A stretch of DNA of 64,000 bases from Podospora anserina (lineage: Eukaryota), in the NCBI GenBank assembly GCA_017654855.1, contig CM030333.1, positions 4,526,001 through 4,590,000 of the forward strand. Reading direction: 5' to 3'. Positions 52,406-64,000 of this stretch are shown here, one piece after another. Position numbers and translations under genes: made by a program. Under the pieces are notes generated by a model. That model did not search any database, had not been told where the DNA came from, and saw only the letters and a list, made by a program, of their open reading frames with translations. Positions within the stretch are counted from its first letter, which is position 1; each line of letters begins with the position of its first letter.

Positions 52406-53603
52406 ATGTCCGTTATTCTATGCACCGGTGAGTTTTCCTCTCATGCTATACGATGTTGCGACCCTTCTGAGAGATCCTATTTCGGTGCTGCTCGCTATTG
52501 ACACGCCTGGCTGACATTGGGGTTCGATAATAGCGGGTTACGACCACACAATACGGTACGACAAGCCGGAATATCGAAATGCAGATTCTCTCGTATCAAG
52601 GGGCTAACACTCTTGCTCAGATTCTGGGAAGCTCTATCAGGCATCTGCTCCCGAACGATCCAACATCCTGATTCGCAGGTCAACCGACTCTGCATCTCAC
52701 CAGACAAGCGCTACCTCGCTGCTGCCGGCCACCACACCGTAAAGCTTTTCGATATCCGATCGACAAACCCTGCGCCACTTCTCGTCTTCGAGGGCCACAC
52801 GGGCAACATCACAGGTGTTGCATTCCACTGCGAGGGAAAATGGATGGTCACGAGCTCTGAGGATGGAACCGTCAAGATCTGGGAGACGAGGACTGGCACA
52901 ATACAGCGCAGCTACAACCATGGATCCCCTGCGAATGACGTCGTAATTCATCCCAACCAGGGTGAAATCATCAGCTGTGACCGCGCTGGCAGCATCCGAC
53001 TGTGGGATCTGGCCGAGAATACCTGCTCGCACCAACTAATCCCAGAGGAAGATGTGTCTGTGACAAGTGTCACCGTGGCAACCGATGGGACCCTTCTCTG
53101 CGCCGCAAACACTGTTGTATGTGGATCTTTCATGTTCTCGTTTGAAGCTCGTGATAATGAGATGTGCTGACCTGCCGTTGAAGGGAAATGTCTTCGTCTG
53201 GCGACTCGAACAGCAGTATGAGCGCACCACTCTTGTACCCCTAACCCAATTCTCAGCACACAGCAGTCACTACATCACCCGCATTCTCCTCTCGCCCGAC
53301 GTCAAGAAATTGGCAACATGCAGCGCGGATCATACCGCAAAGATCTGGGAGGTCAAAGAGATGGAACCCCAGGGTCCAGATAGTGAACCACGACCGTTCC
53401 CTCTCGAAGCCACACTCACTGGCCACCAAAGATGGGTTTGGGACTGTGCCTTCAGCGCCGATAGTGCGTACCTCGTCACTGCATGCAGCGATCATTACGC
53501 TCGCCTTTGGGAGCTTCACAGTCAACAAATCATCAGACAGTACAACGGCCACCATCGTGGCGCCGTCTGCGTGGCCCTCAATGACTACTCGGAGGCCAGA
53601 TAG
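52406..53603 (+). CDS. LST8: TOR complex subunit LST8 (WD40); exons 52406-52427, 52534-52555, 52621-53116, 53184-53603
   Basis: [38 protein letters not shown]...GHQRWVWDCAFSADSAYLVT...GHHRGAVCVALND; 319 aa. Confidence 0.97.
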
Positions 53604-53870
53604 GACGGGCCCTCGGAAGACTATTGCAAGGACGAATCACGCGGAGAACGCCGCAAAAGCAATTCGGGGTCAAGACAGCAAGACCAAGCTCAGAGGCGAC
53701 TCCAGCACCCCAGACAGAAACAACGGACAAAGTCTGGGACGAATTACAAGGCTGCGAGGAAAGCCAAGGATAAGTCGGGACCTTCATCAGCACCACCAAC
53801 AGTACCAACACCCGCGCCCGCTGGGCCACTGGTGACAGTAGAGGAAGCTACAGCTCGGGTTGGTGAGCTT

Positions 53871-53910
53871 GTTGTCACTCCCCAGGAATCGTTGTCACTC
53901 CCCAGGAATC
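53871..53910. repeat. Perfect 20-bp tandem duplication (GTTGTCACTCCCCAGGAATC)x2
   Basis: Directly visible. Confidence 0.97.
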
Positions 53911-54576
53911 CGCTTCTCCCGACGATGCGAGCGACGTGACCCCCATCACCCCCATGGAGAGCAAGAGATCATCATTCGTTGAGGTTATCGAGGGGCAGGT
54001 GAAGCGATCAGTTGCAGGGAGTTTTGGTGAACTGATAATTTGGGGATACAACGACTATGGCTAAGAAGTATCAGCATATGCAGTGATTTTTCTTTCTTCG
54101 CAATCCATCAGAACACGCTCTGTAGGAATATGTACCAACAATAGGGTTGATCAGTTGCGACTGCGTTTTGCAGAGAGGGAAAGGCTGGGGGCTGCATTTG
54201 ATGATAGCGATTGCGAAGAGTTTGGTGCCTACGGGGCAACCGGCAAAATAATTATCTGATTTCTGCAACTAGCAAGTAGCGACCAGTCGAATACATTGTA
54301 ATCCTGGGAACATTTTGCCAAAGATTTTGCGGCTTGCACCTCGCTTTCCCATTATTTGGTTTGTAAACTATCTACAGCACATTCAACAAGCCGCCCATCA
54401 ATCGCAACTCCATTTCTCCTCGCATGCAAACCCAAAACACAACACGAAAAAAACCCCTCCAAGTTTGCTTCCCATGCTTTTTCGATCGCCTCCACCAAAC
54501 ACCTGACCAAAACCGGTCTATATTATAAGTACCCAGTTTTCATATCGTCATACATAGGTCTCTCAAGCAGCGAAAA

Positions 54577-57332
54577 TCACCACCCACCCCAGCCATCGTC
54601 CCCATCATCATCCTTGGGCTTGGTATCGATCTTCTTCTTCACCACAACTGGCTTACTCTTCACCGGCACTGTCGTCTTCTTTGCTGTCGTCGCAGTGGTA
54701 GTTTTACCCAACCCCTTCGGCAAAGCTTTACTCCCCCCCAACACTCCTTCCTTCTTCTTCTCCGCCTGCTGCGCCAACCACCCCGCGAAATCTGGCTCCG
54801 AGCCATCATCAAACGGTTTACTTGACGCCGTTGTCGTTACTGCAGGTTTCTTCTTTGACGATGATGGCTCCGCAAACGGATTGTCGTTTGACTGATTGCT
54901 CGATATCGAGGCAGTCATCTTGTTCGGAGTGGATGTATCATCGTCGTCCATGTCGCCCATATCACCCCACGCGTCAAAGTCGGCACCATCATCGTTGTTG
55001 TCGTCCTCTGGGAAAAACAACTCGCCTGTTGTCGATGGGTTTCGGGTGAGGGGTGCTGATGGAGGAGGGAATTTGACTGCTTGCCGGTGGAGTGGCGAGG
55101 CAGAGGAGTTGGACGTGATGGGAGCTGCTGTTGGTGGGCGCGAGGGAGGAGCAGACGAGGAAGCTGGGACAGAGGATGCCCCGTTGGAAGAAGTAATATC
55201 CCCTGCTGCAGCGGAGAGCTTGTTTGTAAAAGACGAAATGGCCCAGCCTGCCCAGCCGGCTGCTGCCTCTGCTTGGGGTGTGCCCATCCTGGGGTTCCCA
55301 GAGATCGCGCTTTCTGGTGGTAGAGCTGTCTCGGGCATGCTTTCGACTGCCTTCTTGATCCTTTGGACGTACACGTCCAGTGTCTTGACTGCTTGGTCTC
55401 GAATAAGCTTCTCCTTGTCGATGAGCGACGGGCAGATGGCTGGAAGCACGCGAGTCGCGCAGTCTTCGTCGGAGAAGTGCTCCGATGTGACAGACAGAGC
55501 CATCAGGGCAGCGTTTCGAGCATGAATGAATGGATCGCGAAGTGAGCGACTAAAGGCCGCTATGAGAACCTTGGAACGGGAAGAAGTCCCCAGATGCTTG
55601 GCAATTTTCCCAAGACAAATCGTAGTATTTGTGCGAATACCGGGCTGCTCGTCATTGGCTGTTTTGGCCAAGTACTTTAGCAATTCGCCGTTGATAGTTC
55701 TGTCGGAAAGTTTGGTGATGATTGTGAGGACAGACTTGAGTGTCTGTTCTCTGACAACTGGTGCTACATCTGTGAACCCCGTAACCTAGACTACGTCAAC
55801 ACCTGTTACCGCACCACTAGTTATGACTCTTAACTTACTATTTGTGGAAAGATCTTGTCATTGACTGTTTTTTGCGAGAGCCTGTCAATCATGAGGGGCA
55901 AATTGTCAAGTAAGCACACCCTGATAGCTCTGTCAGGGTTCCCAAATAGTCGAAGAAGCACGGGAAGGACCTTGGCGTCAAAATCCTCATTCGATAACTT
56001 CGTGGCGATTTTCATGACGAGTCCGAAGGCTTTGGGACCGCCGCCTCCGAATTCCACTGATTTCAATAGCTCTGGCAAGACTTTCATTTTGAAAAAGTCC
56101 TCCGGAAAATCATCGGTGAGCTGATCGAGATCACTGCATCGAGTCAGCAAACGCTCGTTTTATGACTTGAAAAAATCAAACACTTACTCAAGAAACACTT
56201 CTCTTTCCTCCTCCGTCTTCACCCCGAGATTTTCAACTCCCTCGGTTAGTTTGATTAGAGGCGTGTCGAAGAACGACCCATTTCGACGGCCTTGTTCAAG
56301 GAAGTGAGCCACTGTGAGTCTGGCCTTGGGATTTGGGTTGGCGAGACGCTTATAGCTTGGGTGAAGACTGGGCGGTATATTCTTCGTCTGCCCAGCCTGG
56401 TCACTGCTGAAACTGCCATTGAAAATCTCGAAGATCAGCGCACCGAAGTCGTACGCATCTACAGCAGAGTGAGGACTGCGCTTGATCGCATCCCATCCCG
56501 ATTTTGCTAGCTCAGGCGGTGTATACCGTCCTGAGTCTGGGACAAGACTGCCATATGTCTACATTCATGTCAGTTAGTCGGTCGCACATTGGAGAGGAAG
56601 CTCCAACCTACATAGATCACAGCCTCGTCATCTTTAACATTACTCAAAACCTCAAAACCACCAAGCTTCCACTCGCCACTTTCTGTTGTGTAAACAGAAG
56701 CGACCTTCAAGTTGCCATGGACTGACGAGGCCTCATCATTGATGAATTTGACGGTTCGCTGGGTCATTATCAGCATTACAAAACCCTGGATAGAGACATC
56801 ACACAGTCGAATGAAACTAACCGCGATGCTGTAAAGACCCCATTTCGCCGTCTCAGGACTTAGACTCTTTCGTTTAACGTGCCACCGCAGAGGTACTAGG
56901 CGTTCCGTTGCGATGTATATATACGTCTCTGACTTTTTCAAACATTTCAGTATGAAGCAGTATCCGGGTTGTCGCGTAAGCTCGTACCTCGACCGCATCC
57001 AGCACCTTTATTACACCCGGGTGTCGTAGTGTTCGGAGCTTCTTCAGCGCATTTCTGGCGAGAGGGAGGGCGGATCGATTCGCGGCGATTTCGAATGAGA
57101 AGATACTGCAATCGGAACCATCTTCCTACTCCATAAATATAGTCAGCTAAGGTGTGTTCTGCGGGTTTGTGCATACGGTAGAGAAAAGTTGGGTTGCGAA
57201 GCTTACCCGCCGAGTGCCATTGTACAGAGTCCATATAGAGGGGTCAAGGTCGACTTTATCGCCAAAATTATAGGGGAATGGCGGTCCCTTCGCTGCCATC
57301 GCCGAAGCGACGGCGGATTTGAGAAAGTCCAT
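54577..57332 (-). CDS. CEX1: SCYL1/Cex1-like pseudokinase with HEAT repeats; exons 57332-57207, 57125-56988, 56932-56822, 56758-56612, 56558-56188, 56133-55839, 55785-54577
   Basis: LRTLRHPGVIKVLD, IYIATERLVPL, SVHGNLKVASVY..ESGEWKLGGFE, DEQPGIRTNTTICLGKI, and a C-terminal GWGGW. Confidence 0.9.
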
Positions 57333-62345: not shown

Positions 62346-64000
62346 CTAAACAGAAGCACTCTTACTCAATAGATTCAACGCGCTCCCCGCCAAAATAAAC
62401 CCAGCCTGGTCCTTGCTAACCTGGTGCTTGACAGGGACCAAAAACTCCTCACCAGTACCCTTCTTGGTAACCTTGAGCTGGACCTCGCCTTGTCCACCAT
62501 TCTGGAGCATGTCATACAAGCCCACAGTAGCAACCTCGTCACCGGCAGCAATCTTATCATAATCCTGCTCGTTGGCTAGCGTCAGGGGGACAACACCCTG
62601 CTTCTTGAGGTTGGTTTCGTGAATGCGGGCGAATGACTTGCACGCGATGATCCTGGCGCCGAGGTAGCGGGGCTGCAGAGCGGCGTGCTCGCGGGCGGAA
62701 CCCTCGCCGTAGTTGTGCTCGGCGACCACGAGCCAGGGCTGGTTGCGCTCCTTCCAGAGGTTGGCCAGCTCGGGGATGGTGTGCTTGGATCCATCGAGAT
62801 CGTAGGCGACGTTGACCTCGCCCGTCTCAGCGTTGACGGCCGTGTTGAGGGTGTTGGCCGAGATGTTGGGGAGGTGGCCTTTGTACTTGAGCCAGGGGCC
62901 GGCGGCGGAGATGGTGTCGGTTGTGCACTTGCCCGATACCTTGACCAAGACCTTGAGGCCGGAAAGGTCAGAGTTGGGGAAGGGCTCAAAGGGCTCGAGA
63001 AGGGCAAGACGCTCCGAGGTGGGAGAGATGGCGACCTTTTCGTTGGGGTTGGGGGGCTGGGAGGCGACCTTAAAGACGTCCTTGCCAATGTCGAAGGGAG
63101 TCTTGGGTCCCTCGAGACCGTGGGGAGCAGGGAACTTGAACTCCTTGCCATCGGGGGTGGTAAGGGAGTCGGTTACGGGGTTGAAGGTGGTGGAACCGGC
63201 GTAGGCCATGGCGGTAACGATCTCGGGCGAGGCGAGGAAGTTCATGGTGTCTAGGTTACCGTCGTTACGGCCGCGGAAGTTGCGGTTGTAAGAGGTGAGA
63301 ATGGCGTTGACTGTGCCCTTCTCGACACCATCCTGGCGCTTCCACTGACCAATGCAGGGACCGCAGGCGTTGGACAGCACAATGCCGCCGGCCTTTTCGA
63401 AGGTCTGAAGGGTGCCGTCTCTCTCGAGGGTGGCACGAATCTGCTCACTGCCAGGAGTGACGTAGAAATCAGCCTTGGGCTTCAGTCCAGCCTCCTCAGC
63501 AGCCCTCACAATGCTTTCGACACGGGTCATGTCCTCATACGAGCTGTTGGTGCAGCTACCAATGAGACCGGCCGAAAGCTTCTCGGGCCACTTCTGCTCC
63601 TGAACTGTGCTCTTGAATTGGGACAGGGGAGTGGAAAGATCGGGAGTATGGGGACCGTTAATATGGGGCTCGAGCTTGGACAGGTCGATTTCGATGAGTT
63701 CGTCGTATTGCGCACCCTCGTCGGCCTTGAACCTGAAGTACGCATCCTCAGAGGCGCCCGCGCCAGGGAAGTTCTGGAAAGCGGCAGCATTCCTGACAGC
63801 CTGCTCTCTGCGAGTAGCCTCGAGGTATCTGGCTGAGGCCTCGGTGTAGGGGAAGATGGAGGTGGTGGCACCAATCTCAGCGCCCATGTTGCAAATGGTA
63901 GCCATACCAGTGCAGCTCAGTGTCTCAACACCAGGACCCGAGTACTCGACAATGTAACCAGTACCGCCACGGACTGTCAAGAGGCCAGCCAGGTGCAGGA
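62346..64000 (-). CDS. ACO2: Mitochondrial aconitase, Aco2/AcoB type (5' part lies outside the window)
   Basis: LIGSCTNSSYED, NACGPCIGQW, TSYNRNF.GRNDGN, CTTDTISAAGPWLKYKGHL, NYGEGSAREHAAL. The TMNFLASPEIVTAM segment resembles Aco2 rather than Aco1. Confidence 0.9.
   Translation of the reverse strand, partial: LHLAGLLTVRGGTGYIVEYSGPGVETLSCTGMATICNMGAEIGATTSIFPYTEASARYLEATRREQAVRNAAAFQNFPGAGASEDAYFRFKADEGAQYDELIEIDLSKLEPHINGPHTPDLSTPLSQFKSTVQEQKWPEKLSAGLIGSCTNSSYEDMTRVESIVRAAEEAGLKPKADFYVTPGSEQIRATLERDGTLQTFEKAGGIVLSNACGPCIGQWKRQDGVEKGTVNAILTSYNRNFRGRNDGNLDTMNFLASPEIVTAMAYAGSTTFNPVTDSLTTPDGKEFKFPAPHGLEGPKTPFDIGKDVFKVASQPPNPNEKVAISPTSERLALLEPFEPFPNSDLSGLKVLVKVSGKCTTDTISAAGPWLKYKGHLPNISANTLNTAVNAETGEVNVAYDLDGSKHTIPELANLWKERNQPWLVVAEHNYGEGSAREHAALQPRYLGARIIACKSFARIHETNLKKQGVVPLTLANEQDYDKIAAGDEVATVGLYDMLQNGGQGEVQLKVTKKGTGEEFLVPVKHQVSKDQAGFILAGSALNLLSKSASV

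Follow-up and report, generated by a model that had tools for sequence, protein, structure and literature searches.

Known C-terminal extensions in fungi

LST8, also named Pop3 or Wat1, is an essential and extremely conserved WD40 subunit common to the cores of TORC1 and TORC2. The subject of this work is the LST8 gene of Podospora anserina, more precisely its TAG stop codon and the 111 in-frame codons that lie behind it, within a window of 64,000 nucleotides (the whole stretch of DNA that was analysed: assembly GCA_017654855.1, contig CM030333.1, positions 4,526,001 to 4,590,000 of the forward strand; coordinates below count from its first letter). We regard it as fairly likely that this TAG is a conserved stop-loss adenosine-to-inosine (A-to-I) editing site of the Sordariales, which would serve to lengthen LST8 during the development of the fruiting body.

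The closest described case is the orthologous gene of Sordaria macrospora, SMAC_05602 (pop3/LST8), for which an A>G change at position 1381, turning TAG into TGG and the stop into tryptophan, is listed by Teichert et al. (2017, GBE, Table S2). According to the same table, G was present in 29 of 217 reads (13.4%; 12 of 54 in one replicate and 17 of 163 in the other), and the site carries the flags 0 0 1 0 0, which stand for a call in wild-type protoperithecia only, in each of their two replicates, and for none in the vegetative or the sexual mycelium or in the pro1 and nox1 protoperithecia. The main text of that paper makes no mention of LST8. The Sordaria gene and the one studied here are thus orthologues with the same TAG stop and belong to the same order, the differences being the species and the fact that the Sordaria edit is known from a single row of a supplementary table. 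Records of A-to-I editing exist for Sordaria, Neurospora and Chaetomium, and a preprint on P. anserina reports ADAT gene expression only.

A second instructive case is that of FgDBF2, whose stop codon was found to be TAG in 94% of Sordariomycetes versus less than 37% elsewhere, and to be embedded in a hairpin (Du et al. 2026, PNAS, PMC13123824). The DBF2 tails were described as longer, disordered and, except between close relatives, poorly conserved; the extension is destabilising and is proposed to reduce the dosage of the protein during ascospore formation, and six further stop-loss tails likewise reduced GFP levels (Du et al. 2026). LST8 resembles DBF2 in its preference for TAG within the editing lineage and mixed stops elsewhere, in the position of the TAG within a predicted hairpin, and in having a long and poorly conserved tail. 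The two differ in that DBF2 is a kinase of the septation network and that destabilisation was seen for the DBF2 tail, LST8 being known here from sequence. Moreover, in one clade the LST8 tail displays purifying selection and shared motifs beyond the needs of a generic degron. As a separate observation, Dataset S1 of Du et al. (2026) gives 8% stop-loss editing for Raptor/Kog1 of Fusarium graminearum (FG2G11310, 'regulatory associated protein-mtor'), so that in another Sordariomycete a further subunit of TORC1 is affected by this kind of editing.

That tails of this kind can be translated is known from White collar 1 of S. macrospora, to which stop-loss editing adds 131 residues, a change backed by peptide evidence (Blank-Landeshammer et al. 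2019, mBio, PMC6794485). As in LST8, the change is UAG to UGG and a tail of similar length is added to a conserved regulator; the peptides set this protein apart, since none is given for SMAC_05602 in three supplement files of that study. A literature search for LST8 together with A-to-I editing returned nothing beyond an unrelated review on ribosome biogenesis. The Neurospora crassa orthologue, NCU04281, appears in a paper on TOR localisation.

Extensions behind annotated stops also arise in fungi by translational readthrough, as in proteins that acquire a peroxisomal targeting signal (PTS) in this way; these depend on a UGA stop whose context is leaky, and a PTS1 tripeptide forms their C-terminus. 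The likeness to LST8 lies in one gene giving rise to two proteins that differ by an extension behind the annotated stop. In contrast, the LST8 stop is a UAG followed by G, and neither frame of the LST8 tail ends in a PTS1-type signal.

The LST8 gene, its stop codon and the frame behind it

The gene and the elements at its 3' end are as follows (ORF, open reading frame):

52406..52427, + strand: LST8 exon 1, with the start codon at 52406 (splice model and RNA contigs)
52534..52555, + strand: LST8 exon 2 (splice model), followed by a 65-nt GT..AG intron that the RNA contigs skip
52621..53116, + strand: LST8 exon 3, WD40 repeats (Pfam WD40, E 3e-27)
53184..53600 (53603 with the stop), + strand: LST8 exon 4, the last coding exon (Pfam WD40, E 3.6e-20), protein end ...ALNDYSEAR
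53601..53603, + strand: canonical TAG stop, candidate A-to-I site at its middle A, 53602 (UAG to UGG, stop to Trp)
53604..53936, + strand: extension ORF in frame with LST8, 111 codons long, encoding a basic and hydrophilic peptide rich in S, T and P
53937..53939, + strand: TGA closing the extension

Among 24 sequencing runs of one organism that cover the stretch, four were compared with this gene through their contigs, namely X1, X7 and X14, which are RNA runs because their contigs are spliced, and X19, a DNA run that is unspliced here. The contigs of the three public RNA runs skip exactly the three predicted introns: the first, of 106 nt and bounded by GT..AG, where they join 52426 to 52533; the second, given above; and the third, at 53117-53183 (67 nt, GT..AG). 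The spliced product of this exon model counts 319 residues. It is a WD40 beta-propeller protein collinear with LST8 to its C-terminus, exon 4 aligning with residues 181-302 of the 303-residue yeast LST8 chain (6emk_B; whole match E 1.3e-58, domain score 169.6 bits). The protein encoded by exons 3 and 4 is 98.4% identical to the orthologue of Triangularia setosa and 98.0% identical to that of Cercophora samala, which places the organism among the Sordariales, close to the Podosporaceae. All 45 best-matching orthologue proteins listed share its last residue (...ALNDYSE-x-R). The yeast alignment, the common end of the orthologues and the RNA-confirmed introns together identify the TAG at 53601-53603 as the true LST8 stop.

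A preliminary description made from the letters of this DNA had already called the gene LST8, an identification borne out by the WD40 matches, the yeast alignment and the common orthologue end. It had also reported the context AGA-TAG-GAC, the 111 open codons up to the TGA at 53937-53939 and the peptide they encode, and all of these were recovered unchanged. The tail was described as basic and S/T-P rich, which agrees with its composition (isoelectric point 10.2, 18% K+R, 30% S+T+P, grand average of hydropathy -1.23). The end given for the feature, 54064, was misplaced, since what closes there is not the extension frame but a second ORF, which spans 53867-54064 and is read in a different frame.

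Taken alone, the 111-codon frame is only mildly unusual. The probability of at least 111 open codons was 0.0175 in a first-order Markov simulation with the composition of the 3' intergenic DNA and 0.0735 with that of the tail itself, and at least as many open codons also follow 3 of the 30 stop-to-stop ORFs of at least 200 codons in the window. Given these mild chance values, the weight of the argument rests on the comparison with relatives.

The stop codon and the open frame across LST8 loci

Metagenome contigs were scanned with exon 4, which yielded 80 loci with downstream DNA, reduced to 59 distinct ones to which the window was added. These were divided into a close group with an exon-4 identity of at least 79% (n=18) and a distant group (n=42). 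The close group is nearly uniform in its stop codon (TAG 17, TGA 1), whereas the distant group is mixed (TAG 13, TAA 11, TGA 18), the difference in TAG use being highly significant (Fisher p 8e-6). The close loci have a median of 107 open codons in frame behind the stop versus 19 and 20.5 in frames +1 and +2 (Wilcoxon p 0.016); the corresponding medians in the distant group are 21.5 in frame and 16 in each of the other frames (p 0.88). Tails of at least 80 codons were found in 13/18 close versus 4/42 distant loci (Fisher p 2.6e-6).

Since the 79% cut was chosen post hoc, the loci were also sorted by their nearest named protein. Every one of the 14 Sordariales-like loci, window included, ends in TAG, and 13 of them carry tails of 83-258 codons, one of which ends at a contig edge at 83. 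In contrast, tails are 9, 9, 8 and 46 codons long in the four loci whose nearest named proteins come from relatives of Coniochaeta, Diaporthe, Microdochium or Scedosporium. In locus L011 (2915-3385), 18 codons are followed by a second in-frame TAG and then by 137 more open codons; L013 is of the same sequence type, and full read-through there would take two edits. The codon next to the stop is GAC or GAT (Asp) in 12 of 17 TAG loci, and most tails are acidic at their start. Apart from this, the untranslated region (UTR) of the window has no DNA similarity to those of the relatives.

The surroundings of the stop show a parallel trend, its middle base being placed in a predicted hairpin loop of 3-7 nt in 13/18 close versus 6/42 distant loci (p 2e-5).

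Selection on the tail in the Chaetomiaceae-like clade

The tails of the Chaetomiaceae-like loci are mutually homologous, with blastp E-values down to 1e-110, L024 joining them at 1e-5 to 1e-7. The three close pairs formed by L006, L007 and L010 have ratios of nonsynonymous to synonymous substitution rates (dN/dS) of 0.31, 0.28 and 0.34 when the tail is read in frame with LST8 (Fisher p 4e-6, 2e-7 and 5e-4), versus values of 0.95-1.55, none of them significant, when the same alignments are read in the other two frames. The synonymous rate (dS) of the tail, 0.20-0.37, is similar to that of exon 4, 0.34-0.45. In addition, all 12 indels in the tails of these pairs and of L008/L012 are multiples of three, which is not so in the next 300 nt. 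Conservation in this clade begins right behind the TAG and includes a shared motif at the end of the tail. The tails of L001 and L019 are also homologous to each other (E 5e-13), at a divergence too great for a clean selection test.

An AlphaFold2 model of a Chaetomiaceae-like tail, built on a six-row alignment, has a mean predicted local distance difference test score (pLDDT) of 56.3. It contains two short helices, residues 9-19 and 22-36, predicted with pLDDT about 83-85 and arranged as a putative helical hairpin, scores being low in the rest.

To judge from these substitution patterns, at least one clade translates the tail and holds it under purifying selection in frame; the frame-specific selection, together with the shared motifs, suggests a more specific role there. 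A search with the tail alignment for assembled edited transcripts, in which LST8 and the tail would form one protein, gave none among proteins of 318-2000 residues, which is weak evidence.

The context of the stop codon and the RNA contigs

At the LST8 stop, the candidate base is the central A of a UAG, with U at -1 and G at +1. In F. graminearum, edited sites strongly favour U at -1 (85.7%), and stops are lost through the change of UAG to UGG (Liu et al. 2016). The context of 53602 fits the preferences given in that paper at -3 (G), -1 (U), +1 (G), +2 (G) and +3 (A), and departs from them at -2 (A) and +4 (C). The editing context, which had been called optimal, is on this basis favourable and short of optimal.

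The TAG also falls in a small predicted hairpin:

53589..53616, + strand: predicted stem-loop with a 6-nt loop, 53600-53605, that contains the TAG (minimum free energy, MFE, -14.2 kcal/mol)

The probability of 53602 being unpaired is 0.99 (MFE fold of 53572-53632).

A second position of the gene may be mentioned here. In N. crassa, LST8 (NCU04281) carries a missense edit at position 379 of the coding sequence (CDS), AAT to GAT, Asn to Asp, at 5.96% and with T before the A, according to a published site list (PMC13431901). The corresponding codon 127 of the window gene (52954-52956) is AAC, also Asn, and is preceded by C; its context is, from the letters, less favourable than that of the N. crassa site.

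The downstream region and the neighbouring gene

Three further features occupy the region behind the stop:

53871..53910, + strand: perfect 20-nt tandem duplication (53871-53890 / 53891-53910) inside the extension
53911..54064, + strand: continuation of the frame if there were a single repeat copy, part of the ORF 53867-54064, with TAA at 54062-54064
54577..55785, - strand: last exon of a HEAT-repeat protein gene, the convergent neighbour (Pfam HEAT, E 4.5e-11)

The duplication was seen in four of four runs (three RNA, one DNA). It shifts the frame by 2, which is how the second ORF is entered; a single copy would give a reading of 146 codons in all. The continuation at 53911..54064 has a CDS-like GC content by codon position (0.54/0.45/0.59) and resembles none of the relatives' tails. 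A 'TPME...' stretch of the second ORF had been likened by eye to the 'SPMA...' motif of the relatives, a resemblance ruled out by failed sequence and profile comparisons.

The stop of the HEAT-repeat gene faces LST8, hence 53604-54576 holds both 3' UTRs. The X1 and X14 RNA contigs run unbroken from LST8 across the 974-nt gap between the stops into the HEAT-repeat gene (53184-54800), so that the two 3' UTRs probably overlap, a contig over two genes not being proof of a single transcript. Position 54749, within the HEAT-repeat gene, is T in the window and C in X1, X14 (RNA) and X19 (DNA); because the DNA run carries C too, this looks like a strain difference and not like editing.

Elsewhere in the window, at 63252, 30926 and 9458, three more long ORFs of the + strand, of 205, 409 and 221 codons, end in TAG, with 193, 125 and 90 open codons in frame behind them. 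These TAGs could be in-frame stops within introns or additional stop-loss candidates.

Weighing the explanations

Several observations weigh against the TAG being an editing site used in P. anserina. For 53602, A is the sole letter listed in the RNA contigs of X1, X7 and X14, as it is in the DNA contig of X19; this is weak counter-evidence, since contigs, here from RNA runs of unspecified stage, lose minor variants, so that just majority editing in the sampled material is ruled out. The hairpin is no more stable than shuffled sequences, 161 of 200 of which have a fold that is equally good or better (z +0.81). The comparison itself is qualified by the post hoc cut and by the kinship of the loci, whose counts are not phylogenetically independent events. 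The tail of the window is not coding-like in its GC content by codon position, which is 0.63/0.56/0.53 versus 0.56-0.60/0.45-0.48/0.62-0.63 in the LST8 CDS. Behind the stop, frames +1 and +2 are rather open too, with 76 and 55 codons, and both the frameshifting duplication and the non-coding-like GC of third codon positions speak against a constraint on the particular sequence of the distal tail in this lineage. No homologue of this tail was found among longer proteins or 1.84 billion representatives, and Pfam gave nothing above noise. Comparison by blastn and tblastx with the 80 loci of the relatives gave nothing, blastp against the relatives' tails found nothing either (best E 0.006), and a profile comparison with the Chaetomiaceae-like tail alignment returned probabilities of 0.3% and 0.05%. 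The nearest loci found are just 91% identical in exon 4, too distant for a measure of selection on the window tail.

The records from other species add to this list. LST8 is missing by name from the 403 F. graminearum stop-loss genes in Dataset S1 of Du et al. (2026), taken as a whole, and no entry there has a CDS position of 956-962. The available part of the N. crassa site list has NCU04281 as a missense target only, with no stop edit near the expected position (PMC13431901). The lack of SMAC_05602 peptides in the three supplement files mentioned above counts in the same direction.

Much of this would be expected if the DNA behind the stop were an ordinary 3' UTR, that is, if no meaningful editing took place in this species, the 111-codon frame were a product of chance in a stop-poor, GC-rich UTR, and the pattern of the relatives were not carried over. 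The chance values of 0.0175-0.0735, the three long ORFs of the window with equally long frames behind them, three rather open frames, third positions that are not coding-like, the duplication, the A in the RNA contigs and a tail without homologue all agree with such an account. What it leaves unexplained is the pattern across the order, with TAG in 14/14 and a long frame in 13/14 Sordariales-like loci despite UTRs that share no DNA similarity, as well as the Asp codon next to the stop in 12/17 TAG loci, most tails being acidic at their start, and the edited stop of the S. macrospora orthologue. We therefore consider an ordinary UTR unlikely.

Could the tail be reached without editing? A selected frame in the relatives indicates translation and says nothing of its route, so that UAG readthrough, or a frameshift in the tail, might supply a low and constant level of extended LST8; a programmed frameshift is described for another gene of P. 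anserina, PaYIP3 (PMC3777964). Against such recoding stands the retention of TAG in 17/18 close versus 13/42 distant loci, a pattern that editing explains and leakiness does not. Readthrough in fungi is known from the context UGA-CUA, which the LST8 stop lacks. Added to the stage-specific A>G reads at the orthologous stop of S. macrospora, this makes recoding without editing quite improbable in our view. Still less credence is due to a separate reading unit downstream, or to an alternative splice bypassing the stop, as the source of the open frame. The region does lie in convergent 3' UTRs that probably overlap and is fully covered by RNA contigs, but the three RNA contig sets hold just the three LST8 intron joints, the first ATG of the extension frame comes four codons before its end, conservation in the relatives begins at the TAG, and no Pfam family matches.

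Stop-loss editing thus remains our preferred explanation. TAG is the sole stop that is made sense by a single edit at a U-preceded A, and its retention makes editing likelier than plain readthrough. The preliminary description, which had proposed the editing reading for this stop, named frame conservation in the Sordariales as a check, and the 14 TAG stops and 13 long tails of the Sordariales-like loci answer it. It had further stated that the absence of both editing and a conserved frame would speak against its proposal; what was found is an edited stop in S. macrospora and a frame kept in the relatives. The proposal itself fares well on the conserved frame, on the selection in one clade and on the TAG to TGG change of S. 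macrospora, and less well on the RNA contigs, which read A, and on the window tail, which is unconserved. Its further suggestions, a putative likeness of the basic tail to a nuclear localisation signal and a possible rewiring of TOR signalling, are hypothetical. For the organism of the window, editing of the stop and translation of the tail are inferences, as would be any effect on TOR; a longer LST8 is probably made in sexual development.

A model for LST8 extension and its meaning

In the model proposed here, the mRNA of vegetative cells would be read to the TAG and give the ordinary 319-residue LST8. At the fruiting-body stage, a stage-specific deaminase (in F. graminearum, Tad2-Tad3 with Ame1) would act on the A at 53602, which follows a U and is predicted to lie in a small loop. 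A share of the mRNAs would then carry UGG (Trp), and ribosomes would add the 111 codons. The product would be a core subunit of TORC1 and TORC2 with a basic, S/T/P-rich and probably disordered tail. By analogy with the extension of DBF2 (Du et al. 2026), what would most probably change is the stability or amount of LST8 in the sexual stage, and not its fold.

A broader proposal is that LST8 of the Sordariales carries an ancient, selected C-terminal module, present in the sexual stage only, that tunes the amount, partners or location of TORC1 and TORC2. This we put forward tentatively, as a possibility we somewhat doubt. In some families the module would comprise the modelled helical hairpin and a conserved aromatic motif at its end.

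Hundreds of fungal genes are known to undergo stop-loss A-to-I editing, and LST8 would be a further case. The worth of the resulting tails is openly disputed, as in the papers of Li and Zhang versus Du et al., both of 2026. If the broader proposal above is true, LST8 would provide a clean positive case in the dispute on adaptive stop-loss editing, and the TOR kinase complexes would have, at their core, a switch that works at the RNA level. LST8 offers a tractable test of whether the dosage or composition of TOR complexes is retuned for ascospore formation.

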